This document shows positions 17,910-35,908 of a stretch of DNA of 64,000 bases, piece after piece. The stretch is from assembly GCA_964502365.1 (NCBI GenBank), contig CAZCWQ010000001.1, positions 8,053-72,052 on the forward strand. Reading direction: 5' to 3'. The translations under genes were made by a program, and so were the position numbers. The notes beneath the pieces are model-generated. The model was given only the letters and a program-made list of their open reading frames with translations, searched no databases and was not told the DNA's origin. Every line of letters begins with the position of its first letter. Position 1 is the first letter of the stretch. The DNA is from an uncultured Desulfobacterales bacterium (GTDB lineage Bacteria > Desulfobacterota > Desulfobacteria > Desulfobacterales > C00003060).

Positions 17910-17913
17910 CTTG

Positions 17914-19230
17914 TTATCTCTTCCGTTCCGTGTGGCACTGGATGCACAGGTCATAGACAGTGGCAAATGGCATCATCGCAGGCTTGTTCCCTGTGCCGCA
18001 AGCCTTATGACAGCTTAGACACTCCACAGTGAGGTTCCTGTTCCTTTGGTCTACAACCTTTTCACCAATCGGATGTGTTGAGTGGGTCTGCCATTCGTGG
18101 CAACGGCCGCACAGCTCTATGCTGATAGACTCTTGTGAAATGAGCAGGACGTTATCTGAGGCGTGCGGAGAATGGCAGGCGATGCAATTGCCCGTCTTTA
18201 CGGGTTCGCACAACTTCGGGTTCTTGGGATTACTTATTGACCATTTTTGAAGTTCCACTGTATCGGAATGACACCTCCCGCAAAGATCGACAATGGCCCT
18301 CTTTAAGAGTTTCCCCTGCTTGGTGGCGTGGGGCCCATGACAATTCAAACATCCAGTCTGATCCACCAAAGGCCAGTGTGTGCGATTCTGGTTGAGCGTC
18401 TTATCAATCAGTTTCTTGTGACACTGCATGCACAACTCAGTGCCCTGCCATTTGGTCTTCAACGGGTTGGCCGAAGTTGGTTCTTGGTGGCATGCACTAC
18501 ACTGCTGTTTGCTCACAGGAACATGGGCATCGGCGAACACCATGCCCCTATCATTGGAGCCATGGGGGTCATGGCAGGAGCCACAGTTCGTCTTGGCCAC
18601 AGGGTAATTCATGTGCTTCCTGGAAAAAGAAGGTTTGCCCGTGTCATGGCACTCCACACAGAGGGAAGGGGCATCCTTCTTCAATAAGAAATCAGATTTC
18701 TCTGAGGCGTGCGGGTTATGGCAATTGAGGCACCCCTTTTTCGTGTTCAAGGGTTTATGTTTGAACCGGTTCTTCTTGACTTGGTTCCCCATGTCCTGGT
18801 GGCAATCAAAGCAAAGCTCGTTGCCTGTGTTGACCAGCTGAAACTGGTTGTCCGATCCGTGGGGATCGTGGCATTTGTTGCACTTGCCTTCTGCAACAAC
18901 CATATGGACCTTTTGTGCCTTCTCAGGCATCACGTCCTTATGGCAGTTGGAGCAAAGCCTCGTCGGCCCTGCGGTCAACAAGCCCTTGTGAGAAGATGTA
19001 TGAGGCTCATGGCATGCGGAACACTCGCCCCTTTTCATCAGAGGATGTACATAAGGGCTCTTAATCGTTTTTTGAAAGGTCTCATGACATTTCAGGCATA
19101 GTTGCCCTTTGGCCCCCAGCTTGAGTTTGTGTTTGCCCTCTGGGCGAGCACGAGTCGCCATAAGCAAAGTGCTCATGAGGCAGACCAGCAAGACAGTGGC
19201 GCGGCGCAGGTCAAGTTTCAATGGTCTCAT
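17914..19230 (-). CDS. multiheme c-type cytochrome, 16 CXXCH motifs
   Basis: I counted 16 CXXCH motifs. The start at 19230 forms an ATGA overlap with the upstream 26-heme gene stop, followed by a signal/TM segment. Confidence 0.9.
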   Translation of the reverse strand: MRPLKLDLRRATVLLVCLMSTLLMATRARPEGKHKLKLGAKGQLCLKCHETFQKTIKSPYVHPLMKRGECSACHEPHTSSHKGLLTAGPTRLCSNCHKDVMPEKAQKVHMVVAEGKCNKCHDPHGSDNQFQLVNTGNELCFDCHQDMGNQVKKNRFKHKPLNTKKGCLNCHNPHASEKSDFLLKKDAPSLCVECHDTGKPSFSRKHMNYPVAKTNCGSCHDPHGSNDRGMVFADAHVPVSKQQCSACHQEPTSANPLKTKWQGTELCMQCHKKLIDKTLNQNRTHWPLVDQTGCLNCHGPHATKQGKLLKRAIVDLCGRCHSDTVELQKWSISNPKNPKLCEPVKTGNCIACHSPHASDNVLLISQESISIELCGRCHEWQTHSTHPIGEKVVDQRNRNLTVECLSCHKACGTGNKPAMMPFATVYDLCIQCHTERKR

Positions 19231-21329: not shown

Positions 21330-21344
21330 TACGACTTTACAATC

Positions 21345-23267
21345 CTACGGTTGAAGATCTTCTCGGTGAATCTCTACCGGATAGTACGCTCTGAGTTCGT
21401 CTGCCCAGTGCTCGATCGACGCCTTCATCTTTTCCTTATAAAGGCCCTCTGCAATTTCTTCTTTCACATCTTCAAACGGTTTTGCCTTGGGGGAAATCAC
21501 GGCGGACACGAACAAGACATAGTACAGGCCATCAGGGCTCGCATACAGCCTGAAATCTCCAGAATCGGCCCCTGATACGGCCTTTTGGACTGCTTCGGGC
21601 AATCCCTCCAGGGTCAGCAGCGTCCCATCGAACGGTAGAACCCCGGCCGTGTCCTTGTCAACCTGCCCCGCTGCATTGGAACTCAACCAGTCAAAGTCTG
21701 TGCCTTTGTTCAGCTTCTCCATGGCATCCACGGCCCGACTTCTTTCTTTGAACACGACACTGCGTATTCTCATCATCTGCGGGAACGTGTACTCCTGAAG
21801 ATTGTCGTCATAGCGTTGTTTCAGTTCCTTCTCAGTGAGCTTGATGTCAGGGACAACGACTTTGTTCATGAAGGCGGCAAAGATGACCGAGTTTTCATAC
21901 TCCTTGACTCTCTGTTTATAAATCTCCGTCTCATGAATCCCCTGCTTCAGGGCCTCTTTTTCCAGTACCCGCTTTTGAAGTAGCTCTTCTAAGACCTCGC
22001 CCTTTCTCTTGTTCACTTTCTCCGTTTCGATGGCTCTCTCAACCCCGTGGTAAAATCTCGCTTTCAAACCATTGCTCAAGTCTGCAACGGTAATCGGCGT
22101 TTCTCCTTTTATCTCGGCAACAACTCGCGTGTCTTCCAAGAGGTCTTCGAATCCCGGTTTCTTGGATTCATAGTCAAGGGCATCAAAGATCTTGGCGTTT
22201 ATCTTCACATATTTCTTCTTCAAACCCTCGTAGTAGGCGTTGCCGGCACGAAGTTTCTCCTGTTTAAGGGCTTGGTGCCTTGCCTTTTGCCTTGCCTCCT
22301 GGTTCTCGTCTTTTGGGTAGCGAATACCTTCAAGGCGAAAGAGGATAAACCCTTTGTTCCCAAGTGAAAGGATAGGACTCACAGAGCCGATCTCCATTTT
22401 CGAGACAACCTGGGCCACCGGCAGCGTCAGATCCTTGGCCTTCAAATATCCTGCCTCTTGGTCTCCTTTCGCCACGCTTCGGGCAACGGCGCTGTCAACC
22501 ACCGTGTCAAAGCTCTTGCCTGCCTTTATCTCTTCCTGAATTTGCTTTGCTTCATGTTCCTTTTCAACCGTCACCGACCTTAGCTTCCATTCCTTCACTA
22601 TTTCCTTGTAGAACCGCTGCACTTCCTGCTCATCGGCCTTCACGTCTTTCATTTGCCGTTCAAGCAGAAGCTCGATAAGGCTCTTTACCGCATAGTCAGC
22701 CACAGCGCTTTTCACTTCCGGCAACTCGCCAAGGCCCATCTCTCTGGCCTCAAGCCCAATAAGTTTCATATTGATCATGCGCTTCATAATCGCGGAATAG
22801 TCTATCCGACCTGCCTCTCTTTCCTCCTGCCTTGCCGAGTGTGAGGAGGCAATGGCCCTGTTGAACTCTTCCAAAGTAATTGGTTCTCCGTCCACTGTTG
22901 CCACGACCTCCTTGTTGTCAACCAGGGGAAGTTCCTTGGCTTCGGCAAAGGCCAATGCTGAAGCCAGTAGCAAGCAAGTGGCAACGCACGCGAGCACAGC
23001 CCCTACCCATTGGACGGGACAGCCGGTCTGGTTGCTTTCATGTGTTAAGACGGAGGATAAGCGTCGGTAAAACTCCTTTCGAAATAGCAAGGCATTTGGC
23101 GACATGGTGGGCTGGGTCGGCCTGGCGAAAGCCCTGCCGCCAAGACCAACAGGAAGAACAGGCTTTGCATAGGGTTCCGGAGCAAGCATGTTGAAATGAG
23201 ACGATACCCAGGCTTTTCTTAATAACGGGATGCCCGCCGATTCAGCATTCATCGCATTGTGGCACAC
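21345..23267 (-). CDS. SurA/PpiD-like peptidyl-prolyl isomerase (PpiC/parvulin type)
   Basis: Has a TM/signal segment, a SurA-N-like VATVDGEPITLEEFNRAI and parvulin-like regions. The start is uncertain (GTG 23267, ATG 23252 or ATG 23105). Confidence 0.65.
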   Translation of the reverse strand: MCHNAMNAESAGIPLLRKAWVSSHFNMLAPEPYAKPVLPVGLGGRAFARPTQPTMSPNALLFRKEFYRRLSSVLTHESNQTGCPVQWVGAVLACVATCLLLASALAFAEAKELPLVDNKEVVATVDGEPITLEEFNRAIASSHSARQEEREAGRIDYSAIMKRMINMKLIGLEAREMGLGELPEVKSAVADYAVKSLIELLLERQMKDVKADEQEVQRFYKEIVKEWKLRSVTVEKEHEAKQIQEEIKAGKSFDTVVDSAVARSVAKGDQEAGYLKAKDLTLPVAQVVSKMEIGSVSPILSLGNKGFILFRLEGIRYPKDENQEARQKARHQALKQEKLRAGNAYYEGLKKKYVKINAKIFDALDYESKKPGFEDLLEDTRVVAEIKGETPITVADLSNGLKARFYHGVERAIETEKVNKRKGEVLEELLQKRVLEKEALKQGIHETEIYKQRVKEYENSVIFAAFMNKVVVPDIKLTEKELKQRYDDNLQEYTFPQMMRIRSVVFKERSRAVDAMEKLNKGTDFDWLSSNAAGQVDKDTAGVLPFDGTLLTLEGLPEAVQKAVSGADSGDFRLYASPDGLYYVLFVSAVISPKAKPFEDVKEEIAEGLYKEKMKASIEHWADELRAYYPVEIHREDLQP

Positions 23268-23335: not shown

Positions 23336-23698
23336 CTAAAATACCTGTTTTAAAAAAGCCTTGATGTCAGACAGGACAAAGGGCTTGGGGATAAAAACGG
23401 CTCCCTTTTCTTCGATAGTCCTTTTTATTTCATCACCAACAGAACTTGCCGAAATAATGGCGACATTAGTTTCAGGGGATATCTGATGTATTTCGTCCAT
23501 GACATCCAGGCCACTCACATCGGGCAGTCCCAGATCGAGGAAACACACCCAGTAGGATGAGAAGTGCATCTCAATGATGGCATCTCTGCCCGTTGAGGCG
23601 GTTTTGATCTCTCCTTCAAAACCGCACAATTTACGAAGTGCGCCTGACATGCCGGACAGAATAGATGGCTCATCGTCAACGATTAGAATCTTTCTCAT
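23336..23698 (-). CDS. single-domain response regulator (REC only)
   Basis: ILIVDDEPSIL...FLDLGLPDVSG...KPF receiver-domain signature, 120 aa. Confidence 0.85.
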   Translation of the reverse strand: MRKILIVDDEPSILSGMSGALRKLCGFEGEIKTASTGRDAIIEMHFSSYWVCFLDLGLPDVSGLDVMDEIHQISPETNVAIISASSVGDEIKRTIEEKGAVFIPKPFVLSDIKAFLKQVF

Positions 23699-24217: not shown

Positions 24218-25201
24218 ATGAGAAACCGACAAAATAAGATTGAATTACTCATTGGGCTGCGCCTTAAACGCATGATCGTTGTATGCCTTGCGAGTACAAT
24301 TTTCTGCGCAGGCATGTTCACTGGCGCGTCAGCACAAGTGGAACCGGTCTTTTTATACACTCTGTCCAACTTTGATGGTCCCATACCGTACAACTGGGCG
24401 AACATTTATTTTGACGAACAGAGAAACGAGATTTATGTGGTGGACAGGCGTGAGGGGGACATAAGGATATTCGATCAAAACGGCATGGAAATCCACCGTT
24501 TTGGTGACGATGGAAGGCTGGGCACTCTCATCGATGTTGCCGTTCGAAACGATGGAAACATCTTTGTTGTGTCCAGACAGGGGTTGAAGCCCTCAGTCCT
24601 TCTCTGTGATTTCAGAGGAGAGCCTCTGTCAGCACTCGAGTTCAGGAACTTCCCTCCCGATTTTTCGGTTTTTTCACCCGACCGCATCGCTTACCTGAAA
24701 GAACGGCTCTACCTGCTTGACACCATCTCCTTGAGGATAGCGATTACAGAAACCAACGGCCTTTTCCGGAACGGTTATGACGTCGTGTCTCTCCTGGGCC
24801 TCGAAGAAAAAAAGAGGGGAGAGGCGGACATCGGCGGATTCAGCGTTGACCGGGAAGGAAACATGCTCTTTACCATCCCGGTCCTCTTTTCAGCCTACAT
24901 ACTCTCTCCGGACGGGCAGATACAGGGCTTTGGCGGGCCCGGAAGCGCTCCTGGGGGGTTTGGCGTTGTAGGGGATATCGTGGCAGATGAAAGAGGCTAT
25001 TACTATGTGGCAGACCGGTTGAAATGTGTTGTCGATATTTTTGACAAGGATTTCCAGTTTCAGTCCGAGTTCGGGCATCGCGGATTCAGGCCGGAGAATC
25101 TTATAGGTCCCAAAAATCTGGTTCTGGATGCCGAGGGCAGGCTCTATGTGTCTCAGCTCGCGAGCAGAGGGGTCAGTGTTTTTAGGATAACCTATGACTA
25201 A
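24218..25201 (+). CDS. NHL-repeat beta-propeller protein
   Basis: Signal peptide present. Repeated blades such as YVVDRREGDIRIFD, YYYVADRLKCVVDIFD and LYVSQLASRGVSVF. Confidence 0.75.
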   Translation: MRNRQNKIELLIGLRLKRMIVVCLASTIFCAGMFTGASAQVEPVFLYTLSNFDGPIPYNWANIYFDEQRNEIYVVDRREGDIRIFDQNGMEIHRFGDDGRLGTLIDVAVRNDGNIFVVSRQGLKPSVLLCDFRGEPLSALEFRNFPPDFSVFSPDRIAYLKERLYLLDTISLRIAITETNGLFRNGYDVVSLLGLEEKKRGEADIGGFSVDREGNMLFTIPVLFSAYILSPDGQIQGFGGPGSAPGGFGVVGDIVADERGYYYVADRLKCVVDIFDKDFQFQSEFGHRGFRPENLIGPKNLVLDAEGRLYVSQLASRGVSVFRITYD

Positions 25202-25415: not shown

Positions 25416-26600
25416 ATGAAAACTACTAAGTTACTGGTTATCATGGCAGCAGTCCTGATAGCCGTTGGGTTAGGTGGCTCTGCCATGGCTTTCCATGACG
25501 GCGGTGTTGCACACTGCGACGGCTGCCACTCAATGCACCAGCAGGTGGACGGCGCGTCCAACCTTAGCGGGAATGCAAACAATAACCTGACCACAGGTTC
25601 AGACCCAAGCTCCACCTGTCTCAACTGCCATGCAGGAAGTGGAAGCTACCATATTCTGAGCGCAGATGGCACCAATTTTTACCCAGGTGGTGACTTCTAC
25701 TGGGTCACGGCAGGGTTATGGACGGTGGACCACGACACGGACAGCACGGACTCAAATCGCGGCCACAACATCACGGCCTTGGACTTTGGCCTTGGGGACG
25801 ATGGCAGACTGAATGTGGCTCCTGGTGGTACCTACCCCGATACCCAGCTGGGATGTAACAGCTGCCATGATCCTCACGCTAAAGTGGGCGGGGCTGGCGT
25901 AGGCCCCGGCGCACCAAACCCTGCGCCGATTTCAGGCTCCGGGTCATACGGTGACCCAGACCCTACGGATGGCTCTATCCTGGGTAACTATAGACTCCTT
26001 GGCGGTATCGGTTACGACGGTGGTCAGGGTGCAAGCGCCAACTTCGCCAATGCTGCTCCCATCGCTACGGCGCCAGCCTTTGGCTTTGCCCCCGGTAGTG
26101 TCGGCTTGACTGAGCGCGACGATAATCACGTAGACTACGGGTCAGGCATGTCGGGATGGTGTGGAAACTGTCATACCAGCTTCTTCTCAGGCGCCCACGT
26201 GCACCCGGTTGACACGGCTGCAACCCTGGGCGTGGAGGCCACTAATTACAATCACTACATCTCCACAGGCAACTTTGATACTTCAAGAACCGCCACAAGC
26301 GCAACCTACCTGGCGCTGGTGCCTTTTGAGAGAGGCACACCGGACAGAACACTCCTGTTGCCGACCAATACGGACGGTCCTGATGTTAATTCGCAGGTCA
26401 TGTGTCTGACATGCCACAGGGCTCATGCCTCACCATTCAAGCACATTGCCAGGTGGGATCTGAATACGGAGCTGCTGGCAGAGTCCAATGCAAACGCACC
26501 AGTGGCAGTGCAAGCCGTGCAATACTACGAAAGAGACATTGCAACCGACTTCGGCCCATGGCAAAGATCGCTGTGCAACAAGTGCCACGTGCAAGACTAG
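25416..26600 (+). CDS. omcS: OmcS-family hexaheme nanowire-type cytochrome
   Basis: Strong RBS (AAAGGAGGAAA), signal peptide ...AMA|FHDGGVAHCDGCHSMH and six CXXCH motifs. Blocks PGGDFYWV, APGGTYP..LGCNSCHDPH, YRLLGG, SGMSGWCGNCH, CLTCHRAHAS and a C-terminal CNKCHVQD parallel G. sulfurreducens OmcS as I recall its sequence. Confidence 0.85.
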   Translation: MKTTKLLVIMAAVLIAVGLGGSAMAFHDGGVAHCDGCHSMHQQVDGASNLSGNANNNLTTGSDPSSTCLNCHAGSGSYHILSADGTNFYPGGDFYWVTAGLWTVDHDTDSTDSNRGHNITALDFGLGDDGRLNVAPGGTYPDTQLGCNSCHDPHAKVGGAGVGPGAPNPAPISGSGSYGDPDPTDGSILGNYRLLGGIGYDGGQGASANFANAAPIATAPAFGFAPGSVGLTERDDNHVDYGSGMSGWCGNCHTSFFSGAHVHPVDTAATLGVEATNYNHYISTGNFDTSRTATSATYLALVPFERGTPDRTLLLPTNTDGPDVNSQVMCLTCHRAHASPFKHIARWDLNTELLAESNANAPVAVQAVQYYERDIATDFGPWQRSLCNKCHVQD

Positions 26601-26626: not shown

Positions 26627-26660
26627 AAGGCTGAGGGCCCATGCCCTCAGCCTTTTTTTT
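26627..26660 (+). terminator. strong rho-independent terminator after omcS-like gene
   Basis: AAGGCTGAGGGC-CCAT-GCCCTCAGCCTT forms a 12-bp perfect stem followed by T6-8. Confidence 0.85.
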
Positions 26661-26810
26661 GACGGATTGACACCTTTGTGCTTAAAGAGGACAGAAGGGC
26701 CCTGATATAACCACCCAACAGCCCAGAAAGATTGTTCATATGGCAAGTGCGTGATACATAGTGGCACCTCCATCAGAGTGGAAGTAGTCGCGTCATGTGA
26801 GGAACGGCCT

Positions 26811-28223
26811 ATGATGGCACCAAGGATCTTTCCCCTCCTTCTTCTCCTCTCGTTTGTTTTGGGCAGCTGTTTTCCGCAAGGCTCCCTACATAACGTACGC
26901 TCAATGGACGAGGGTCACGTTATTTTGTATCTACAGCCTCTATCCCAGGAGGCATACAGGCTCCGGTTCGTTATCGGCGAGATTTCAGCCATCCGGGACG
27001 ACGGCACTCTGATTCCCCTCTTTCTGTCAATCAATGAGATAAAGGGAACAGGTCTTGTGGCTATCCAGAAACGGCTGGCATCAGGGGGATTGCCTCCCGG
27101 TTCATACACAGGGCTGTCCATCAGGATCAAGGACGCATTTGTGCAGGGGGAAGAAGGCGAATTTGCTTTGTTAGTCCCTGAAGAACCCACCAGGGTTGAC
27201 AGTCTGTTCAACGTGACCCGGAGAAAAACAGCCATCCTGTTTCTTTCCTTCCATGTTGCAGGAGCCATAACCGATCAGGTCCGTTTTACACCTGCTTTTT
27301 CCCTGAAACCCTCTGCCAGAGAGCTCCTCAATCTTACAGGATACGTCAGTGATCCTGCCTCCGACAGCCTCTTGGTCTTTAACAAGAAGACGATGCAGGT
27401 GGTCGGTGCCATATCAACCGGCACGGCACCCAAGGGGATCGCCCTCGACAGAAATAGGGGAAGGGCTTACGTGGCTGCTTATGAAGACGATACCGTGGAA
27501 GTCATCGATGTCATCGAAGGGGAGATTATTGGCAGGATACCACTTAACTTTGGTGATGGGCCGCTGGAGCTCGCGGTGGCCCCAGATGGAAGAACCCTCG
27601 TGTCAGTGAACCATGACTCCAATACGGTGAGTATCATTGATACGGTCTCTTTGTTTGAGATCAGGAGGGTCAGGGTTGCTGAAGGGCCCTCTTCGGCCGT
27701 GGTGGATCCTCCAGGCCTGAAAGCCTACGTTATGAGCCCTCTGGCCAATTCGGTCTCTGTGGTGGATCTGACGCAAAGTGAGGCTTCCGCAACTATAGCA
27801 GTCGAAGGCGGCCCTCTTAGAGGTGCTTTCAATCGCGAGGGCGATACGCTTTATGTTGTGAGCAGGGATTCACCCTACCTGACGGTCATAGATGCCTCAC
27901 GGTTGGTCATCACACAGAGGATTTTCATAGGCATTGGGGCCCTGTCCATAAAAGTGGACACGCAGACCGATCTCATCCTTGTGGGCATGAAGGCGGGGGG
28001 GAACATCCTGGTGATTGACGCTTTCGCTTCCATGGCCATCGATGCCATCGTACTGGAAGGCAATGCCGCTTACCTGACTATCGACGACGAAGAGAACAGT
28101 CTGTTTGTGGCCCTTCCGGACATCAAGTCTCTTCAGAAGGTCAATCTCACGAGTAAGAAGATTACGGGCGCCATAGACGTGGGCGAGGAGGCTTATGCAG
28201 TTGTCGTCGTGCGTGAGAGATAG
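26811..28223 (+). CDS. lipoprotein with DUF4382-like N-terminal domain and YVTN-type beta-propeller
   Basis: Start MMAPRIFPLLLLLSFVLGSC has a lipobox. The N-terminal half resembles the DUF4382 protein at 56673. The C-terminal half has repeated P.G(I/L)A(L/V)....(A/L)YV....D..V.VID YVTN-like blades. Confidence 0.7.
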   Translation: MMAPRIFPLLLLLSFVLGSCFPQGSLHNVRSMDEGHVILYLQPLSQEAYRLRFVIGEISAIRDDGTLIPLFLSINEIKGTGLVAIQKRLASGGLPPGSYTGLSIRIKDAFVQGEEGEFALLVPEEPTRVDSLFNVTRRKTAILFLSFHVAGAITDQVRFTPAFSLKPSARELLNLTGYVSDPASDSLLVFNKKTMQVVGAISTGTAPKGIALDRNRGRAYVAAYEDDTVEVIDVIEGEIIGRIPLNFGDGPLELAVAPDGRTLVSVNHDSNTVSIIDTVSLFEIRRVRVAEGPSSAVVDPPGLKAYVMSPLANSVSVVDLTQSEASATIAVEGGPLRGAFNREGDTLYVVSRDSPYLTVIDASRLVITQRIFIGIGALSIKVDTQTDLILVGMKAGGNILVIDAFASMAIDAIVLEGNAAYLTIDDEENSLFVALPDIKSLQKVNLTSKKITGAIDVGEEAYAVVVVRER

Positions 28224-28226
28224 CCG

Positions 28227-30401
28227 ATGAATGCGGTCCGTTCGCCAGCTGTGTGCCTGTTTTCGATTATCGTTATCTCCAGTGCCCTTTGGCCACCAAA
28301 CATTTGGGCCGAAGGGATCAACTTCCGTAGTGAATTCACCTACAGAGATTCCGACACCAAAACCACGAACAAGGTCACCGGCGAAGTGACCGAGAGTGAG
28401 TACTCAGCATTTAGGCAGTGGTACAACCTGGACCTATTCAGGACCATTTATCCCTACCTGACGTTAAGGGGCGGAAGCATTCTTGAGCTTAACGATTCTA
28501 TGTCCTCTTCTCAAGACACAGAAACCAAGACGGAGGAACAAACCCTTCGTCCATTCGCAGAAATCAACCTGAACAATCCGATTTACAAGGCTGGAATCGG
28601 ATACCGCGGGACCCAAATAGAAAGAGATACAACAGGGATTCCCACCACAAAGGACCTGAGAGACGAATTCAGTACCCTTTTCGGGTGGAGGCCTACGGAT
28701 TTCCCCGAGATGAACGTTCGCTATACCCATACCCATACTTATGACCATCCGGAGACCGTGGATACCATCGATAAACTGCTTACCTATGATGCCCGATATA
28801 CCGCATGGGAAGAACTTCGGATGAGCTATCTCTATATCCGAAATGAGAGACAAGAGCTTATCGACCCTTCCGAGACCTTGAGGCAAACGCATACCGGCAG
28901 GGTCGACTATTCACACAGTTTTTTCGGAAAACGCCTCTCTATGGGAACGGGTTACAGAATTCGTCATGACACTTTGGAGTTTCCCACATTGGCGACTTTG
29001 GAGTCTCCAGTGTTGCGCTCAGTAGGACTTTCGGCACTTGACGACACCCCCACCGACGGACCGGCCCTTGATCCAAATCTTGGCCTCATAGACGGGGATG
29101 TTGCCACGTCAGCCGGTCTGGATATCGGGTTGGCTGGCGATGAAACGACCCTGACAAACCTCGGGCTCGATTTTGGATTTCCCGTCTCTATGGATAAGCT
29201 GTATGTTTGGGTGAGCAGGCGTCTTTCCTCATCGGTCTCCAATGCTTTTTCCTGGTCTGTTTATACCAGCCCGGACAATACCGACGTGAGCACATGGTCG
29301 CTTGTGGCTACAGTTTCTCCTGCCTCGTTTGGGGCTCTTGACAATCGTTTTGAGATATCCGTTCCTGCGGTAAATACGCGCTTTATCAAGCTTGCAGTGA
29401 GGCCACTGTCTCCCATCGTGCCGGACGCTGCCAACTTTTCTAATATCTTTATTACAGAGATACAGGCGTTCAGCACGCAGTCAGGGGTGTCGTTGCAGAC
29501 GAAAGACACTACTGTGGACCACGACTACAACTTCAACCTGACGGGCAGGCTCAGCACGCACACCGTACTCGGCTATAATCTGTATTACAGCCTCCAGGAG
29601 CGGGACCCATCTGCTGAAAAAAGAACGCGCCTTTCTAATGACATCTTTCTTAAGCATACCTTCAACGAAATCTTTTCCGCCAGCACAAGTGTGTCACAAA
29701 CAGACACGAAGCTGACGGACCAGGAAACTCACACGTACACGTATGCCGCTTCGCTCAATGCCGACCATCTGGACACCTTCGGACAGACGCTGACGTACAG
29801 CGGCACGGATGAAACCCAAGACAATGATTCGGGCGATACGAATTCCGTCTTCCTTCGCAATAATGCAAAATTGTATAAGGGTTGGAGCGCCTTCTTCGAT
29901 GTGGGATACAGTTGGAACAAACCTTTGAACTCGGCCCGGACAACCTCCACAATCATAAGATCAGGGACAGACATAGAACCGAACGAAAAGCTTAACATCA
30001 ATATGAACTACTCCGTTACTGACACAAAACAAGCGGAGGAGGACGGGAGAGACACGTCCAGATCTTCACTGGATCTGCAAGCCTTCTTTCTGCCCTGTAC
30101 AACGTTGTCCCTTTTTGCCAGATTGAGCGTGCAGGACAGGGGGGGCTCCAGAACCACGCTGCAGGACTATTCCGTCAGCTGGTCACCTTTTCCTGACGGT
30201 ACCCTACAGTTTCTTCTCGGGTATACCGAGACCCTTAGGCCGGAGGACGAACAAAAGGACAGGACCATAAGCCCGAGTCTGAAATGGACCATAGGAAGGC
30301 ACATCCTCGCGGATATGTCCTACACCATTGCCACAAGCGAGACCGAGTTGCAGACAATCGATTCGAATAGTCTCAATATCAATGTGAAGCTCATTTTTTA
30401 G
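28227..30401 (+). CDS. predicted outer-membrane beta-barrel protein with internal discoidin (F5/8 type C)-like domain
   Basis: Signal peptide (...NIWAEG). Alternating-hydrophobic, Y/T/S-rich strands flank the insert, and the C-terminus is ...NINVKLIF with an aromatic last residue. The central ~150 aa reads GLIDGD...WSVYTSPDN...RFIKLAVRP...FITEIQAF. Confidence 0.6.
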   Translation: MNAVRSPAVCLFSIIVISSALWPPNIWAEGINFRSEFTYRDSDTKTTNKVTGEVTESEYSAFRQWYNLDLFRTIYPYLTLRGGSILELNDSMSSSQDTETKTEEQTLRPFAEINLNNPIYKAGIGYRGTQIERDTTGIPTTKDLRDEFSTLFGWRPTDFPEMNVRYTHTHTYDHPETVDTIDKLLTYDARYTAWEELRMSYLYIRNERQELIDPSETLRQTHTGRVDYSHSFFGKRLSMGTGYRIRHDTLEFPTLATLESPVLRSVGLSALDDTPTDGPALDPNLGLIDGDVATSAGLDIGLAGDETTLTNLGLDFGFPVSMDKLYVWVSRRLSSSVSNAFSWSVYTSPDNTDVSTWSLVATVSPASFGALDNRFEISVPAVNTRFIKLAVRPLSPIVPDAANFSNIFITEIQAFSTQSGVSLQTKDTTVDHDYNFNLTGRLSTHTVLGYNLYYSLQERDPSAEKRTRLSNDIFLKHTFNEIFSASTSVSQTDTKLTDQETHTYTYAASLNADHLDTFGQTLTYSGTDETQDNDSGDTNSVFLRNNAKLYKGWSAFFDVGYSWNKPLNSARTTSTIIRSGTDIEPNEKLNINMNYSVTDTKQAEEDGRDTSRSSLDLQAFFLPCTTLSLFARLSVQDRGGSRTTLQDYSVSWSPFPDGTLQFLLGYTETLRPEDEQKDRTISPSLKWTIGRHILADMSYTIATSETELQTIDSNSLNINVKLIF

Positions 30402-30592: not shown

Positions 30593-31186
30593 ATGATTGG
30601 ATCGAAACGCGGTGTGAGTCTAATGAGATGTGTCTTGCCTTGCCTTTATCTTTCCTTGACCGCCTGTGCCGCCCCCCCTCCGCCCACCACGTATCATGAC
30701 CCGGATATGGATTTTGCGTCATTGCGCAGCGTTGCAGTCATGCCTTTTGAGAATCTCTCGCGAGACAAGCTTGCGGCGGAAAGGGTGCGAGACACCTTCA
30801 TTAACAACCTCTTGGCTACCACTTCGCTTTATGTCATCCCTCCCGGCGAGGTCGCACGGGGCAGCACAAGATTAGCGCTTGATAAGCCTGCTACGCCATC
30901 CGCGGAGGACATCTTAAAACTGGCCGTTATCATCAAGGCAGACGCTGTCATCACCGGCGTTGTCAGGGAGTACGGAGAGATAAGATCCGGGACCACATCT
31001 GCCAATGTTATATCCATCAGCGTGCAAATGTATGAGGTGCAAACGGGAACGGTGGTGTGGGCAGCATCGTCTTCGCAGGGCGGGATAAGCACATGGGATC
31101 GACTTTTTGGGGGCGGAGGCAAGCCGATGAACGATGTCACCGAAGCGGCTGTGGATGATATTATCAATAAACTCTTCAGCAAGTAA
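30593..31186 (+). CDS. CsgG/LpoB/DUF799-like lipoprotein
   Basis: Lipobox LSLTAC. SVAVMPFENLS...ADAVITGVV pattern is typical of the TolB-N/CsgG/LpoB-like fold family. Confidence 0.6.
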   Translation: MIGSKRGVSLMRCVLPCLYLSLTACAAPPPPTTYHDPDMDFASLRSVAVMPFENLSRDKLAAERVRDTFINNLLATTSLYVIPPGEVARGSTRLALDKPATPSAEDILKLAVIIKADAVITGVVREYGEIRSGTTSANVISISVQMYEVQTGTVVWAASSSQGGISTWDRLFGGGGKPMNDVTEAAVDDIINKLFSK

Positions 31187-32297
31187 ATATCTTATCACCC
31201 TTTTCACGGTTCTTATTATCCTCTGGGGTTGTGGAACGGTGAACGACCCTGTGAGAAGCGTGACGAGTGATTCCCCTGTGCATAGACCGCTCCGCGTGGC
31301 TTTTCTGCCGGTCGACAACCTTAGTGGAGGTCCTGCCCCCCTTAAGCATATCAGAGACTCCCTGTCAGACGGTTTCAAGAAACAAGGGATAACTCCCGTT
31401 GATGAGGCAGCACTTGAGAAATTTATTGCTGGGCACCGTGTCCGTTATGTAGGCGGTATGAACAGGGCCACCGCACAGGCCTTCCGAACAGAGATCTCTG
31501 CTGAAGCGGTCCTGATCACATCGCTGGAGCTCTATAGTGAGAGTGCTCCCCCCAGGATTGCTTTCACATGCAGATTGGTTTCTACGGCAGACGACACCGC
31601 AATTTTGTGGATGGATGGCATAGGGCTGGCAGGTGATGACTCTCCGGGAATTCTCGGTCTTTCTCTGATTGAAGATCCCCAGAGCCTTCTTGACGAGGCA
31701 GTGCGATACCTCGCCCTTTCTCTGTCGGCACATCTAGGAGACGGGGGCACGATGGCCACCCCCAAAAGAAGAGACAAATTTCAGCCGAAATTTTTTTACA
31801 GGTCCCCTGTGATGGCCACCGACAGACGTTACCGTGTGGCTGTCATGCCATTTTTCAATGTAAGTGAGAGAAAATACGCCGGCGAGATCATGGCCCTCCA
31901 CTTTGTCAAGGAACTCAGGCCACTCGAGAATTTTGCCGTTGTCGAGCCAGGTGTCGTAAGAGATACGCTGCTGGCACTCAGGGTCATCATGGACGATGGT
32001 CTATCCCTCGCCTACGCAGATCTCATTTTCGGCAGACTTAACGCCGATCTTATTCTTACGGGTAACGTACTGGATTATGAAGACTATCGTGGTCCCGCCG
32101 GGAAACCCAAGGTCGGTTTCTCAGCCATGCTGCTGGAGAAGAAGAGCCGGGAAGTGGTCTGGACCTGCCAGAATTATAATGAGGGGGACAACGGGGTCTT
32201 CTTCTTCGACCTAGGGAAGGTAAACACAGCCAACGCCATGGCATCCGAGATGGTACGTCTTGCCGTGGAAACAATGGCGAGGGAAGGCGGAAGGTGA
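31134..32297 (+). CDS. lipoprotein with two CsgG/LpoB/DUF799-like domains
   Basis: Lipobox ILWGC. Two copies of the same pattern (RVAFLPVDNLS... and RVAVMPFFNVS...ADLILTGNV). The start is uncertain (31134 or 31155) and overlaps the previous gene end. Confidence 0.6.
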   Translation: MSPKRLWMILSINSSASKYLITLFTVLIILWGCGTVNDPVRSVTSDSPVHRPLRVAFLPVDNLSGGPAPLKHIRDSLSDGFKKQGITPVDEAALEKFIAGHRVRYVGGMNRATAQAFRTEISAEAVLITSLELYSESAPPRIAFTCRLVSTADDTAILWMDGIGLAGDDSPGILGLSLIEDPQSLLDEAVRYLALSLSAHLGDGGTMATPKRRDKFQPKFFYRSPVMATDRRYRVAVMPFFNVSERKYAGEIMALHFVKELRPLENFAVVEPGVVRDTLLALRVIMDDGLSLAYADLIFGRLNADLILTGNVLDYEDYRGPAGKPKVGFSAMLLEKKSREVVWTCQNYNEGDNGVFFFDLGKVNTANAMASEMVRLAVETMAREGGR

Positions 32298-32306
32298 TAT
32301 TGGTAG

Positions 32307-33701
32307 CTAATCCAGGCCAAATTTTTTCAATTGGTATCTGAGACTGTCATAGCTTACGCCAAGAAGTTTTGCTGCCTGCGCCTTGTTGTTCCCGGTCCTT
32401 TCTAGAGCCTGAATGATGAGGTCCTTTTCCAATTCTTCCAGAGAGATCCCCGATTCAGGTAAAACAAAACGGTCGCTCGATGGTTGGACTGCTCCCATAG
32501 TACGTCCAAACATCCAGCTCGGCATTTGTTCAGGCTCGATTATTTCATTATCTTCCAGCACCACAAACCGCTCCACCAAATTTTTCAACTCCCTTACATT
32601 CCCCGGCCAGCCGTGAGCGCTCAGGACTTGCTCAGCGGCAGGTGAAAACCCTTTGATGGTTCTTTTGTTATACTTTGTGGCAAAATAAGAGAGGAAATGC
32701 CCGGCCAGTAGGGGTATGTCTTCTTTTCTCTCTCTGAGCGGAGGGATGTGGATATAGAATGGGCTCAGTCTGAAAAACAAGGCTTTCCGAAATTCGCCTT
32801 TTTCCACTGCCTCTGAGAGGTTTCTGCTTGTGCTAGCAATGGCTGTTAGGTCTACGGGGATTTCTTTGTTTCCGCCTATTCGTCTCACTGTCCTGTTTTC
32901 TAATATCCTTAACAATTTGCTTTGAAGCCCTGGTTGCATATCGCCTATCTCATCAAGGAGTATCACTCCTCCTTTGGCCTGCTCAAACAACCCCTTTTTG
33001 TCAGATTTAGCATCTGTAAAGGCACCCTTCTCGTGACCAAAGAGTTCGCTTTCCAAAAGTGTGGCAGGCATCGCTGCGCAATTGATTGAAACAAAGGGGG
33101 CATGATGTGATGGCGTACGGCCAAACATGAGATTGTGAATATATCGGGCAACGACTTCCTTGCCTGTTCCACTTTCTCCGGTAATGAGAATGGCAGATAC
33201 GTGGGCTTTAGCGATCTTTTGCACAGTCGCCTTTATTTCATGAATGGCCCCAGATTCGCCGATAAAATCCTTTTCTATGACCTCAGCATAGGCCTTCCTG
33301 AGATAGTTTACTTCTTGCCTAAGACTTTCTTTCTCGAGGACACTGTCCAAGACAATCTTGACCTCATCAGTATTAAAAGGCTTGGTGATATAGTCCACAG
33401 CCCCGAGCTTCATGGCTTTCACTGCGGTTTCTGCAGTTTCGTCAGCTGTCAGCATGACGACCTGAGTGTCGATAGGATTTTTCCCGCTCTTAATGTCTCG
33501 CAGGATATCTATGCCGTCTCGCCCAGGAAGGCTGATATCAAGCATAACCACATCCGGATCCCATGAGCTGATTCTATCAATGACATCGTTCGGATCAGAC
33601 TCTAAGTATATTTCGTAGCCCTCTTCCTTCAGTGCCTTCGATAGGACTGTGAGAATGAGCTCATCATCATCCAAAATAAACAATTTGCCCTTGCTTTTCA
33701 T
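32307..33701 (-). CDS. sigma-54-dependent response regulator (NtrC family)
   Basis: REC domain (DISLPGRDG), an AAA+ domain with GESGTGKE and the sigma-54 contact loop GAFTDA, and a C-terminal Fis-type HTH. It has an ATGA overlap with the upstream kinase gene. Confidence 0.9.
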   Translation of the reverse strand: MKSKGKLFILDDDELILTVLSKALKEEGYEIYLESDPNDVIDRISSWDPDVVMLDISLPGRDGIDILRDIKSGKNPIDTQVVMLTADETAETAVKAMKLGAVDYITKPFNTDEVKIVLDSVLEKESLRQEVNYLRKAYAEVIEKDFIGESGAIHEIKATVQKIAKAHVSAILITGESGTGKEVVARYIHNLMFGRTPSHHAPFVSINCAAMPATLLESELFGHEKGAFTDAKSDKKGLFEQAKGGVILLDEIGDMQPGLQSKLLRILENRTVRRIGGNKEIPVDLTAIASTSRNLSEAVEKGEFRKALFFRLSPFYIHIPPLRERKEDIPLLAGHFLSYFATKYNKRTIKGFSPAAEQVLSAHGWPGNVRELKNLVERFVVLEDNEIIEPEQMPSWMFGRTMGAVQPSSDRFVLPESGISLEELEKDLIIQALERTGNNKAQAAKLLGVSYDSLRYQLKKFGLD

Positions 33702-35908
33702 GCTAGCCGTTTGCTCTTGTACTGTTCCGCCTTCAACAAAATCGTAAAAAGGGTCCCCGTGCCTGGAGTGCTTTCAACGTGTATTTGGCCGCCCTGTTGT
33801 TCGATGAGGCGTTGGGTAATGGCCAGTCCCAACCCTGTGCCTTTTGCTTTGGTAGTAAAAAAGGGCTCGAACACCTTGTCCAAGGTCTGCTTGTCCATCC
33901 CGGTGCCGGTATCAGAGATTGTGATCCTTATGAAACCCTGCTTTTCATCATAACTGGTTCTAACGGTCAGGGTTCCGCCATTGGGCATGGCCTGGATTGC
34001 GTTAAGCATCAAGTTCAAGAAAGCCTGCTTAAGTTGCATGGGGTCAGCCAGGGTTTCAGGAAGATGCTCATCAAAATCCTTAGAAATATCTATTGCCGCC
34101 GTTACATTGGATAACAGGGAGGGGTCTTTGAGGCCAAAAGAAAGGATTTTGTCAATAATGTCATTTAAATCCACGGCCATGAGCTGAGGTTTAGGGGGCC
34201 TGGCAAAATCGAGTAGACTCCTTATCAATGATTCGATACGTCCAATCTCGTCGACCGCCTTTGATGCAATGGCCCGGTCTTCCTCAGAGATATTTGGTTC
34301 CTCTCTAAGAACCTGGACTGATACCTTGATGCCTGCAAGGGGATTCTTGATTTCATGAGCCAGTCCTGCGGCCCATTCTCCGACCAATTTCATCTGTTCC
34401 GCTCTCTGCAAAGTCTCTTGTACCCTCTTGCGTTCCGTGATGTCCCGAACCACGTGAATCAGACCTGTCATCTCTTTCTTGCTGTCAAACCGAGGCATGG
34501 CCCTCACCTCGAAATATTTGTCAAAGTGGGGCTCAAAGAATTCAAAAGACGCGGGCTCCTTAGTTTTGAAGCATTCACAGGTGGGACAATTTTCCGGTGG
34601 ACAGTCCTTCCCGTGGAAATAGGCATAGCATTTTGCCTTGACCACGTCCAGAGGTGGTAGTGCCAGAAACTCCTTTGCCGCCCTGTTGGCGTGAATGATG
34701 TTGAATTCTTTGTCGTGGACAGTAATCATGTCTCGAATAGTGTCAAATGTCTCTTCCCAGTCATTCTTGGCTTGAAGGATCTCGTTTTCTATTTTTTTTC
34801 GAGCAGAGATGTCTCTGTCAATGGCTAGGATGTATTTACGACCCATATATGTCAGGAGCCCAGCACTAGCCTCAACAGGAAACACTGTGCCATCTTTTTT
34901 TCTGTGGGGGATTTCTGCCTTGATCCACTCACCGCTCAAGATACGCTTGATACGCTCTGGCGCTTCTTTTGCAGCATCAAGCGTATCTAAATCGTTTACC
35001 AAATTGAGATTGAGCAACTCCTGCATGCTATATCCATGCATTTCTGCCGCCGCAGGGTTAGCGTCCACGATGTCGCCGCGCTTTTCCCCCTCAGCCTCTG
35101 CAATAAATATGGCATCCCCGGCGCCTTCGAAAAGCAGTCTGTAACGCTTTTCGGTTTCCACAACTTTGCGGATATGCTCTTTCAGCGAAGTAGCCATGTT
35201 ATTGAACGATGCTGCTACTTCTCCAAATTCATCTTTTAGGCCTTCAATTCTATGATCAAGATCACCGGCCCTTAACTTCCGTGTCGCCCTCAGTAGCGCA
35301 CTAAGCGGTTTTGTCAGGGTCGCCATAAAGAAAAAAACAAAAACCACGGCGGCAATGGGACCCGCGATCACTAGAACATAGATCAATGTTTTTGAATCAG
35401 CCACACTCTGAAGGGCATTTTGCGTTTCATCCGCCAGCCTGAGCGCTGCTTTATGGACCATCGTGTTGACGTCTGCTATGGCCTGTTCGGCCATACTGAA
35501 GGCCTCGTTTTCTTCCTCAGCCATCCTATCACGATTTGCCCGAAGCGTGAGTACCCTGTTCAATGCATCCTTGTATAGCCCAATTTGGCTTTCCAAATCC
35601 GTTAGGCGCTTGAGTACAGTTTCAGAGTGGTGACAGTCAAAACAGGACTTTACGACGTCGTCCATGCTCTTGACATTCTTGACAATAGTGCCAAGGTCTC
35701 GCCTGTGATGCGTCCCAATTAGCGCAAGGTCAGACTGGACACTTCTGAGATTAATCAACAGATGCTCCCTGAGTATTTCCACCTGATGAAGCATGATGAG
35801 ATGATCGAGTTGAGACGTAGCGGTTTGAATGGTGGCAATGATGTAGATGCCTCCTCCCACGAAAATGATGGAAAAGGCGCCCAGTGCCAGAAGTATCTTT
35901 TTTTTCAT
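33698..35908 (-). CDS. sensor histidine kinase with periplasmic CXXCH-containing helical domain, HAMP and PAS domains
   Basis: TM1 is aa 5-25 and TM2 about aa 176-197. CFDCH at aa 89-93 (nt 35630-35644) lies between the TMs. Then HAMP, two PAS-like regions (one with CPPENCPTCEC), H-box LAHEIKNPLAGI and GTGLGLAI. Confidence 0.85.
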   Translation of the reverse strand: MKKKILLALGAFSIIFVGGGIYIIATIQTATSQLDHLIMLHQVEILREHLLINLRSVQSDLALIGTHHRRDLGTIVKNVKSMDDVVKSCFDCHHSETVLKRLTDLESQIGLYKDALNRVLTLRANRDRMAEEENEAFSMAEQAIADVNTMVHKAALRLADETQNALQSVADSKTLIYVLVIAGPIAAVVFVFFFMATLTKPLSALLRATRKLRAGDLDHRIEGLKDEFGEVAASFNNMATSLKEHIRKVVETEKRYRLLFEGAGDAIFIAEAEGEKRGDIVDANPAAAEMHGYSMQELLNLNLVNDLDTLDAAKEAPERIKRILSGEWIKAEIPHRKKDGTVFPVEASAGLLTYMGRKYILAIDRDISARKKIENEILQAKNDWEETFDTIRDMITVHDKEFNIIHANRAAKEFLALPPLDVVKAKCYAYFHGKDCPPENCPTCECFKTKEPASFEFFEPHFDKYFEVRAMPRFDSKKEMTGLIHVVRDITERKRVQETLQRAEQMKLVGEWAAGLAHEIKNPLAGIKVSVQVLREEPNISEEDRAIASKAVDEIGRIESLIRSLLDFARPPKPQLMAVDLNDIIDKILSFGLKDPSLLSNVTAAIDISKDFDEHLPETLADPMQLKQAFLNLMLNAIQAMPNGGTLTVRTSYDEKQGFIRITISDTGTGMDKQTLDKVFEPFFTTKAKGTGLGLAITQRLIEQQGGQIHVESTPGTGTLFTILLKAEQYKSKRLA

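Follow-up and report, generated by a model that had tools for sequence, protein, structure and literature searches.

A gene for a 724-residue protein in an uncultured Desulfobacterales bacterium raises the question of what a domain resembling a carbohydrate-binding jelly roll is doing in the centre of a predicted outer-membrane barrel, close to the gene of a cytochrome of the nanowire-forming OmcS family. The gene lies in a 64-kb window (64,000 nucleotides, the whole stretch of DNA that was analysed). An initial annotation of this window quoted four peptides of the protein, all of which are found in the translation of the 724-residue reading frame, and pointed to a possible discoidin-like segment inserted between two halves of a barrel next to a nanowire gene.

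The locus and its gene order

The genes surrounding the barrel gene are as follows (coordinates within the window, strand, product and main evidence).

16986–17966, minus strand: NHL-repeat protein, 326 aa, last of the eight-gene block (NHL, E 1.7e-25)
17914–19260, minus strand: 16-haem c-type cytochrome, 448 aa, OscJ position (domain and CxxCH-motif scans)
19227–21329, minus strand: 26-haem c-type cytochrome, 700 aa, OscI position (13 paired-CXXCH stretches, 26 CxxCH motifs)
21345–23267, minus strand: SurA-like PPIase chaperone, 640 aa, OscH position (Rotamase_2, E 1.8e-24; SurA_N)
24218–25201, plus strand: NHL/six-bladed propeller protein, 327 aa, first gene of the plus-strand block (weak Pfam and NCBIfam matches)
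25416–26600, plus strand: OmcS-family hexahaem cytochrome, 394 aa, presumed client of the barrel
26627–26654, plus strand: terminator-like hairpin just 3′ of the cytochrome gene, 12-bp stem with 8 G-C pairs and a T run (consensus scan only)
26751–28223, plus strand: YVTN beta-propeller lipoprotein, 490 aa, OscD position (TIGR02276, E 1e-28; YNCE; lipobox LGSC)
28227–30401, plus strand: OscE-type outer-membrane protein, 724 aa (open reading frame, AF2 model, homologous family, conserved cluster position)
30593–31186, plus strand: GNA1162/LpoB-like lipoprotein, 197 aa, OscF position (PF05643, E 9e-8; PF13036; lipobox LTAC)
31134–32297, plus strand: lipoprotein, 387 aa, OscG position (lipobox LWGC)

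The neighbouring nanowire gene proves to encode a true OmcS homologue, with six CxxCH motifs and an end-to-end alignment of its residues 26–394 to residues 1–407 of 6ef8 (phmmer, E 8e-63). The last histidine of its N-terminal segment FHDGGVAHCDGCHSMH aligns with OmcS His16, which we take to be the inter-subunit haem ligand. Of the two lipoproteins encoded downstream of the barrel, the larger has a C-terminal half homologous to the smaller (BLASTP, E 9e-11).

The order NHL protein, OmcS-like cytochrome, propeller, barrel, 197-residue lipoprotein and 387-residue lipoprotein recurs in 80 species genomes, where the barrel gene is accompanied by the propeller at 77 loci, the smaller lipoprotein at 78, the larger at 73, the OmcS homologue at 70 and the NHL protein at 63. 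These loci span Desulfobacterota, Nitrospirota, Acidobacteriota, Rokubacteria and Geobacterales, including the cultured Geomonas and Geomobilimonas luticola, whose barrel homologues are 28–31% identical to the 724-residue protein (E down to 8e-96), and a homologue is also present in cultured Geotalea uraniireducens. The closest named homologues are from Desulfobacterales and Deltaproteobacteria metagenome-assembled genomes. G. sulfurreducens is absent from the 80 loci kept, and it was likewise missing when homologues were sought with a Geobacterales profile, which did recover Geotalea and Geobacter sp.

In Geobacter, the osc (OmcS-companion) cluster is given as the eight-gene block GSU2500–2493 in PMC12977616; both this paper and PMC13194489 trace the cluster to Shen et al. 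2025 (Cell Chem Biol 32:239). OscE, OscF and OscG (OscEFG) are the proposed OmcS secretion channel, from the genetics of Shen et al. as relayed in PMC13194489. The supplement of that paper already includes AlphaFold models of the G. sulfurreducens proteins, with 701 residues for OscE, 169 for OscF and 367 for OscG. In the window, the 724-residue gene sits downstream of the OmcS-like hexahaem gene and between the propeller at the OscD position and the lipoproteins at the OscF and OscG positions, and the rest of the eight-gene block (the PPIase, the two multihaem cytochromes and the second NHL protein) is also there. Gene order and protein sizes thus match those of the osc cluster and mark the 724-residue protein as the predicted OscE orthologue, an assignment based on synteny, size and the Geobacterales homologues. 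What had been a run of hypothetical proteins can thereby be annotated as a complete nanowire biogenesis locus of osc type, carried by a Desulfobacterales-like genome.

A barrel with a jelly-roll insert

The 724-residue protein is divided into four parts, all on the plus strand.

28227–28310: Sec signal peptide, residues 1–28 (MNAVRSPAVCLFSIIVISSALWPPNIWA followed by EG), with no lipobox (read from the sequence)
28314–28979: predicted barrel strands 1–11, residues 30–251 (DSSP on the AF2 model, amphipathic alternation, OMP_b-brl in homologues)
28980–29501: CBM32 / F5-8 type C-like jelly-roll insert, residues 252–425 (174 residues), between strands 11 and 12 (domain model, Foldseek, PF22633 in homologues, conservation)
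29502–30398: predicted barrel strands 12–28, residues 426–724, with a beta-signal-like end ...NINVKLIF (AF2 model, alternation, coevolving pairs)

The 724-residue protein has no Pfam match at E ≤ 1, nothing useful in NCBIfam, and no match among PDB sequences by phmmer. The full AF2 model (mean pLDDT 89.1, pTM 0.62) has a helix at residues 5–21 in the signal-peptide region, a first strand from residue 30, 11 long strands (residues 30–251), the non-barrel insert, and then 17 strands (residues 426–723), a total of 28. Several observations are in agreement with a barrel. The strands have an amphipathic alternation of 1.70, compared with 1.21 ± 0.17 in shuffled controls, and OMP_b-brl Pfam matches are present in 24 of 66 homologues. 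Searching the full model with Foldseek gives FimD, TonB-dependent receptors, MtrB and LptD (E ~1e-8). The protein ends in ...VKLIF with phenylalanine as the final residue, and a C-terminal residue of this type is usual for outer-membrane barrels; in orthologues the position is F, Y, W or L, with few exceptions to the aromatic or aliphatic type. A signal peptide, an even number of antiparallel amphipathic strands and a C-terminal aromatic beta-signal are therefore all present, and the coevolving pairs 241–434 and 36–708 join strands 11 and 12 and strands 1 and 28, respectively. The barrel proposed for the flanks by the initial annotation is thus supported by the AF2 strands and the Foldseek barrel matches, and the protein is predicted to be an outer-membrane beta-barrel of the BAM substrate class. 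By standard barrel geometry the modelled barrel would have a C-alpha diameter of about 5 nm and a lumen of roughly 4 nm, about as wide as the OmcS filament itself (~4 nm; PMC6584659).

The segment first noted (nucleotides 29025–29475) corresponds to residues 267–416, and the conserved core of the insert to residues 284–416 (nucleotides 29076–29474). Modelled alone, the insert gives a pLDDT of 90.9 and a pTM of 0.85. Within the full model its pLDDT drops to 78–90, which together with the full-model pTM indicates that AlphaFold is unsure of how the insert packs against the barrel. The leading Foldseek matches of the insert model in the PDB are all galactose-binding-domain-like jelly rolls: the best is the F5/8 type C domain of a chitobiase (3ggl, E 4.8e-6), and others include the CBM32 modules 4zy9, 7blg and 2v72, with TM-scores of up to 0.69 when normalised to the target, as well as 7jnf and APC10 (E 5e-6 to 2e-4 for the named matches). 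There are 128 PDB matches at E ≤ 0.001, essentially of one fold class, and TM-scores normalised to the query are moderate (0.47–0.57).

Matches at the level of sequence come from the homologues. The scan for PF00754 and its relatives suggested by the initial annotation found nothing in the 724-residue protein itself; among the 66 homologues, PF22633 (F5_F8_type_C_2) is matched in 36 at E ≤ 0.1 (best E 1.8e-6) and PF00754 in one. The PF22633 matches fall at residues ~286–390, in the same place as the insert, and of four homologues scored singly two are just above the gathering score of 27.8 (28.7 and 28.4) and two just below it. A profile of the insert searched against PDB sequences with hmmsearch has no match. 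The motifs of the family are present in their usual order, LIDG(D/N), then W-x-V-Y-T-S-P-D-N...W, R-F-I-K-V and I-F-V-T-E-x-Q-A-F. The resemblance of the centre of the protein to F5/8 type C domains is thus borne out by the domain model and its CBM32 matches, and a discoidin/CBM32-like jelly-roll fold is supported as the prediction for the insert, with the sequence-level evidence weaker than the structural evidence. We note that the protein has only two cysteines, Cys10 and Cys624, both outside the insert, and a haem- or metal-binding role is rejected for the insert, which has no Cys or His motifs.

This architecture is not an oddity of one genome. The insert is present at the same position in all 374 family members examined (372 are detected by HMM and the other two are divergent), and the family itself comprises 674 clusters at 50% identity (E ≤ 1e-30). 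The length of the insert is kept within 169–197 aa among homologues, and no other segment of the protein is as well conserved, its mean column conservation being 0.62, compared with 0.45–0.48 for the barrel. The barrel with its insert is therefore shared without exception by a large family at the OscE position, models of G. sulfurreducens OscE are in print, and the early suggestion that the fusion is undescribed is not supported in that form; the observation adds structural detail to an already known family. No mention of the insert fold was found in the compared papers that cite Shen et al. 2025 (PMC13194489 and PMC12977616). The pair of motifs W-x-[VI]-Y-T-S-P-D-N and F-x-[ND]-I-F-[VI]-T-E provides a sharp family signature by which loci for nanowire export could be recognised in metagenomes.

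Position and possible role of the insert

The mature N-terminus is expected to be periplasmic, and since an odd number of strands (11) precedes the insert, we infer from strand parity that it lies on the extracellular side, in loop 6 at the mouth of the modelled pore. The linkers on both sides are short (6–7 residues), which would hold it there. Surface loops are normally the least conserved parts of outer-membrane proteins, and the plugs of TonB-dependent receptors and ushers the most conserved, so the high conservation of the insert, unlike that of ordinary surface loops, speaks for a gate or a contact with another protein rather than for a lectin free at the surface.

The best explanation as a whole, and one to which we give somewhat better than even chances, is that of an OscE-type barrel of ~28 strands with an extracellular jelly roll as a gate or docking cap. 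The 724-residue protein would be exported by Sec, lose its signal peptide and fold into a single very large barrel, whose pore the jelly roll would gate or cap. In the resting state it would block an opening that is otherwise dangerously wide, and during export of OmcS-family subunits it would be displaced and would help to hold the base of the polymer, a role functionally analogous to that of the plug domain inserted in the chaperone-usher barrel. We infer that the insert most likely gates the pore, docks the cytochrome, or both. Glycan binding is the usual role of CBM32 domains, and that the gate-or-dock model leaves it unused is counted against that model. A more specific proposal, which we put forward tentatively and do not regard as probable, is that the insert is the cell-surface element that nucleates OmcS-family filaments and holds their base, acting as a protein-binding jelly roll in loop 6; if so, nanowire anchoring would have a defined and mutable site, one retained across lineages as far apart as Desulfobacterota and Acidobacteria. 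Independent authors have suggested that OmcS is mounted on large barrels in a porin-like manner (bioRxiv 10.1101/2025.10.22.684050), and both the exit of nanowires from the cell and their attachment are still called speculative (PMC12307469; bioRxiv 10.1101/2025.10.22.684050). A tightly conserved jelly roll that is always on the OmcS-export barrel offers a concrete and deletable target for the study of gating and anchoring.

Covariation was analysed in two ways. Mean-field DCA of 349 sequences (Neff 291 for 696 columns) is underpowered: hairpin contacts are recovered only in the top ~50 pairs, 58% of the barrel–barrel pairs are between adjacent strands, and the five insert–barrel pairs in the top 50 are no more than noise predicts. 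This result counts neither for nor against a plug. In a mirror-tree analysis with partial Mantel tests on 41 taxa, distances of the barrel wall co-vary with those of the OmcS homologue (r = 0.61, p = 0.001), in line with this cytochrome as the client of the barrel, and also track the propeller. The insert tracks nothing strongly in the same taxa, and its covariation with the OmcS homologue is not significant (r = 0.14, p = 0.12). The initial annotation suggested that the module could grip the filament or a surface; this test, the only indirect one of that idea, does not favour a lineage-specific contact between insert and cytochrome. It is weak evidence, since paralogues may have been confused, distances may be saturated and the insert is short.

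An alternative is that the insert is an outward-facing carbohydrate-binding module, which would bind lipopolysaccharide or extracellular polysaccharide and fix the pore or the filament base in the glycan layer while neither touching the cytochrome nor gating the pore. The closest structural matches are all to glycan-binding CBM32 and F5-8 type C modules, and PF22633 is a galactose-binding family. In the discoidin fold the N- and C-termini sit side by side at one end and the ligand loops at the other, and a domain inserted in a barrel loop would consequently have its canonical binding site facing outward from the barrel. Sets of glycosylation genes also accompany the OmcE nanowire clusters of freshwater Geobacter (bioRxiv 10.1101/2025.10.22.684050). 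However, surface glycans vary widely across phyla, yet the insert is the best conserved segment from Desulfobacterota to Acidobacteriota; there are no glycan-related genes in the immediate cluster, and the 724-residue protein misses the Pfam models. We consider this explanation unlikely.

A second alternative concerns the barrel itself, which may be an MtrB-type porin–cytochrome conduit rather than an export channel, permanently sheathing a multihaem cytochrome through which electrons cross the outer membrane, with the jelly roll only buttressing the junction; this cytochrome would be the 26-haem protein, the 16-haem protein or the first subunit of OmcS. MtrB (6r2q_B) does give the best TM-score of the full model, although at 0.39 (query-normalised) the likeness is that of a generic barrel only. 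The conserved block also contains the genes of two large multihaem cytochromes of periplasmic type, and the covariation of the barrel wall with the OmcS homologue likewise speaks for a conduit. Against this, neither the 724-residue protein nor its 66 homologues have an MtrB/PioB Pfam match, the model has 28 strands and not 26 together with an internal domain that MtrB does not have, and the genetics cited in PMC13194489 assign OscEFG to OmcS secretion. We give the conduit a low probability, noting that conduit and export roles are not mutually exclusive. That the discoidin likeness is a chance or over-read resemblance in a long structured barrel loop is very improbable: the moderate query-normalised TM-scores and the failure of the protein to match Pfam or PDB sequences, and of the insert profile to match PDB sequences, would fit, but the PDB matches are of essentially one fold class, PF22633 falls at the same place in more than half of the homologues, the segment folds confidently alone and the conserved motifs are in their usual order.

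Comparison with known systems

The closest known counterpart is OscE of G. sulfurreducens (GSU2499), which has the same position in the block and is of the same size class (~700 residues), and OscE-position homologues are found in cultured Geobacterales as they are in the Desulfobacterales window. There are also differences from the Geobacter osc cluster. The host here is of a Desulfobacterales-type lineage, the OscH–K genes are on the opposite strand and divergent from the genes running from OmcS to OscG, and there is a single OmcS-family gene where the Geobacter comparison has three.

Chaperone-usher ushers (FimD, PapC) provide a functional parallel, in that a large outer-membrane barrel exports and anchors a polymerising fibre, as proposed for the 724-residue protein, and has a beta-sandwich domain in mid-barrel, which in ushers gates the pore. 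FimD (9fw9_D) is the top Foldseek match of the full model (E 1e-8). Ushers have 24 strands, a plug between strands 6 and 7, which thus enters from the periplasmic side, and periplasmic N- and C-terminal domains. The modelled 724-residue protein, in contrast, has 28 strands and an insert after strand 11 on the predicted extracellular side, with a CBM32-like fold unlike that of the usher plug. Membership of the usher family (PF00577) is rejected on the strand number, the place of the insert, the lack of terminal domains and the absence of Usher Pfam matches in the protein and 66 homologues, and the resemblance is functional only.

The insert shares its jelly-roll fold and conserved motif order with CBM32 / F5-8 type C domains (PF00754, PF22633), although the 724-residue protein scores under the Pfam thresholds for both. 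Such domains are usually found as add-on modules of glycoside hydrolases, sialidases or coagulation factors rather than embedded in a membrane barrel, and the insert, unlike F5-8 type C (discoidin) domains, has no disulfide joining its termini.

LptD–LptE and MtrB–MtrA are barrels of at least 26 strands with a lumen filled by a lipoprotein or a cytochrome, and the full model matches both LptD (9fz5_A) and MtrB (6r2q_B) in Foldseek. The MtrB/PioB family is rejected as an assignment (no Pfam match in 66 members, an internal domain, 28 strands and not 26), and the 724-residue protein has no counterpart of the LptD jelly-roll N-domain. Two lipoprotein genes lie directly downstream of the barrel gene, a further point of likeness to these systems. 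The plug of LptD or MtrB is a separate polypeptide, whereas the 724-residue protein has a domain of its own chain available.

The barrel protein and its inserted jelly roll

The initial annotation placed a segment resembling F5/8 type C domains at 29025–29475, and this interval corresponds to residues 267–416 of a 724-aa open reading frame (28227–30401, +) whose translation contains every peptide that it quoted. An AlphaFold2 model of this protein (66 homologues) has a mean pLDDT of 89.1 and a pTM of 0.62, with confident local structure, and is arranged as follows.

N-terminus: signal-peptide helix
Residues 30–251: eleven long beta-strands
Residues 252–425: non-barrel segment (the insert)
Residues 426–723: seventeen further strands

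There is a plausible signal-peptidase I site (IWA followed by EG), no lipobox was found in the protein, and the C-terminus is NINVKLIF. Hydrophobicity alternation in the strands is above that of shuffled controls (1.70 vs 1.21 ± 0.17). Structure matches to the whole model are to large outer-membrane barrels (E ~1e-8), including the FimD and PapC ushers, TonB-dependent receptors, MtrB and LptD, with MtrB having the top query-normalised TM-score (0.39). The OMP_b-brl Pfam model is matched by 24 of the 66 homologues, and because the modelled strands, the structure matches and the Pfam matches agree, the original description of the protein as an outer-membrane barrel stands.

When residues 252–425 are modelled alone (27-sequence alignment; pLDDT 90.9, pTM 0.85), Foldseek reports 128 PDB matches at E ≤ 0.001, and the leading ones are without exception galactose-binding-domain-like jelly rolls. 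They include the F5/8 type C domains of Bacteroides chitobiases (3ggl, 3f2z, 2kd7), CBM32 modules (4zy9, 7blg, 2v72, 7jnf, 7d29), APC10 and the corresponding domain of BIRC6. Sequence support for the fold is weaker than structural support. A Pfam scan of the window protein gave no match at E ≤ 1, and a profile of the insert matched none of the PDB sequences; among the 66 homologues, 36 match PF22633 (F5_F8_type_C_2) and one matches PF00754. In homologues checked individually the PF22633 match lies at residues ~286–390, with scores both above and below the gathering threshold. The insert also has the motif order typical of the fold: LIDG(D/N), W-x-V-Y-T-S-P-D-N...W, R-F-I-K-V and I-F-V-T-E-x-Q-A-F. 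The jelly-roll segment within the barrel protein is real and far exceeds chance, a mere chance resemblance to discoidin being excluded by the structure search and by Pfam matches across the family.

Gene neighborhood and assignment to OscE

The plus-strand genes are, in order, an NHL protein, an OmcS homologue, a YVTN propeller lipoprotein (490 aa), the barrel protein and two lipoproteins, the first of them GNA1162/LpoB-like. Features with coordinates are listed here.

15855–16892 (−): protein of 345 aa whose C-terminal domain is peptidoglycan-binding and of the OmpA family, directly past the NHL gene that closes the minus-strand block
16986–23267 (−): divergent block encoding a SurA-like PPIase, 26-haem and 16-haem cytochromes and a second NHL protein
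23336–23698 (−): stand-alone receiver domain, 120 aa, between the two divergent blocks
25416–26600 (+): OmcS homologue
26627–26654 (+): strong hairpin resembling a terminator, with a 12-bp stem (8 G-C pairs) and a T run
30593–31186 (+): 197-aa lipoprotein (OscF position)
31134–32297 (+): 387-aa lipoprotein (OscG position)
32307–35908 (−): a 464-aa sigma-54-dependent response regulator together with a 736-aa PAS sensor histidine kinase, flanking the cluster

The neighbor taken initially for a nanowire gene is indeed a homologue of OmcS, a cytochrome nanowire subunit: it aligns with chain 6ef8_A at E 8e-63 from the first to the last mature residue, has six CxxCH motifs, and its mature N-terminus, FHDGGVAHCDGCHSMH (residues 26–41), is a near-match to that of OmcS. 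The same segment retains the His aligned with OmcS position 16, which we take to be a ligand to the haem of the adjacent subunit within the filament; if that role holds, its retention means that this homologue could polymerise too. The hairpin separates the OmcS-homologue gene from the propeller gene, and as a partial terminator it could keep the filament subunit in high ratio to the export machinery. The C-terminal half of the 387-aa lipoprotein is a copy of the 197-aa lipoprotein (28% identity, E 9e-11), with a second, weak match in its N-terminal half. As called, the two reading frames overlap by 53 nt, and the start of the second may therefore be further downstream.

Scanning one genome per species gave 99 relatives, of which 80 loci were kept, and tblastn with the window's neighbor proteins showed near-universal conservation of gene order. 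The 197-aa lipoprotein is present at 78 of the 80 loci, the propeller at 77, the 387-aa lipoprotein at 73, the OmcS homologue at 70 and the NHL protein at 63, with absences mostly reflecting truncation at contig ends. The loci span Desulfobacterota, Nitrospirota, Acidobacteriota, Rokubacteria and Geobacterales. Cultured Geomonas and Geomobilimonas are among them, and there is a homologue of the barrel protein in Geotalea uraniireducens.

In Geobacter sulfurreducens, eight genes 3′ of an OmcS-like hexahaem gene (GSU2500–GSU2493) are tied to nanowire maturation and secretion (PMC12977616). PMC13194489, which cites Shen et al. 2025, names this the osc (omcS-companion) cluster and ascribes folding to OscH, secretion to OscE, OscF and OscG, and morphology to OscD. 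The published models have 701 (OscE), 169 (OscF) and 367 (OscG) residues (PMC13194489), compared with 724, 197 and 387 aa, signal peptides included, at these positions in the window. Because the block is shared and the protein sizes match, we file the barrel protein as an OscE orthologue, an assignment resting on these and on the Geobacterales homologues rather than on alignment to GSU2499. Here the second half of the block occupies the other strand and runs away from the OmcS-to-OscG genes, whereas the Geobacter block is given as a single run downstream of the hexahaem gene (PMC12977616). The flanking regulator and kinase pair resembles GSU2506/GSU2507, which adjoin omcS in G. sulfurreducens (PMC10599522).

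Conservation, topology and pore geometry

The same architecture is widespread elsewhere. When 1.84 billion cluster representatives were searched exhaustively with HMMER, 1372 proteins matched at E ≤ 0.001 (674 at E ≤ 1e-30), and the best 150 are all one unbroken profile match, nearly all full length (700–780 aa). An insert-only HMM matches 372 of 374 collected family sequences, consistently near residues 250–440. The two that it misses (P0220 and P0247) have strongly diverged inserts of 156 and 168 aa with residual R-Y-L-K-I-V and Q-A-L-T-T motifs, and these natural variants could reveal which parts of the jelly roll are dispensable. Across 74 aligned orthologues taken from the scan, the insert (169–197 residues) has the most conserved core in the protein: its mean column value is 0.62, and the barrel halves score 0.45 and 0.48. 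This set is biased to insert-bearing sequences because the scan relied on three peptide patterns, two of which fall within the insert, a bias of which the HMMER search is free.

The mature N-terminus of classical outer-membrane barrels is periplasmic, and since eleven strands precede the insert it is predicted to exit extracellularly, as loop 6. The linkers on both sides are ~6–7 residues in the model (the C-terminal one at low confidence), and being short they would keep the jelly roll close to the pore mouth, not out on a stalk. Direct-coupling analysis (Neff 291), which recovered hairpin contacts only within the top ~50 pairs, gave coevolving pairs between strands 11 and 12 (241–434, rank 14) and strands 1 and 28 (36–708, rank 101) that speak for a single barrel formed by both strand sets; insert–barrel pairs were no higher than noise level. 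A 28-stranded barrel of standard geometry would have a C-alpha diameter of ~5 nm. The predicted lumen would thus be near the ~4 nm width of the OmcS filament (PMC6584659).

A possible gate, and comparison with known systems

A pore of the ~4-nm class would need closure, for which the jelly roll, the two lipoproteins and the cytochrome itself are candidates. Conservation in outer-membrane proteins is usually lowest in exposed loops, and in ushers and TonB-dependent receptors it is highest in the plug. The strong, plug-like conservation of the insert fits a gate or a site of protein contact better than a lectin free at the surface. In our preferred model the jelly roll would gate the pore mouth and, after displacement, may help to retain the emerging polymer, which overlaps the filament grip proposed initially.

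A partial Mantel test over 41 genomes from the scan, controlling for other cluster proteins and with paralogue mix-ups possible, gave these values.

Partial Mantel correlations (41 loci)
Barrel wall vs OmcS homologue: partial r 0.61, p 0.001
Barrel wall vs propeller: partial r 0.47, p 0.001
Insert vs propeller: partial r 0.20, p 0.017
Insert vs OmcS homologue: partial r 0.14, p 0.12

The two lipoproteins show no distance excess with the barrel wall in this set. Co-variation of the wall is a possible hint at the barrel's contact partners and supports the cytochrome as its client. A lineage-specific grip by the insert finds no support among the 41 genomes; contact with an invariant surface would be expected to leave no trace in this test.

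Two other readings are about equally improbable. The barrel might be an MtrB-like electron conduit sheathing a multihaem cytochrome, for which the MtrB structural match and the 26-haem and 16-haem proteins encoded in the same block can be cited, and which is compatible with an export role. Alternatively, the insert might be a canonical binder of lipopolysaccharide or matrix polysaccharide glycans, as its fold favors, although its conservation across phyla argues against this.

The suggestion that the fusion was undescribed does not stand as put. Published work already covers this protein family, the genomic context and a proposed channel role. Large barrels in the OmcS and OmcE regions have been remarked on (bioRxiv 10.1101/2025.10.22.684050) and OscE models are shown as figures (PMC13194489). 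The literature searched, whose scope did not include the primary osc paper, does not mention that the inserted domain is of the discoidin/CBM32 type, and this is a useful structural annotation, perhaps unremarked before. It would gain weight were the insert a true nanowire anchor, because nanowire secretion and anchoring are still termed speculative (PMC12307469).

The barrel protein lacks the features that define ushers and those that define MtrB/PioB, and both are functional analogies only. In the gate-and-hold model the jelly roll would act like the usher plug, but entering from the opposite side.
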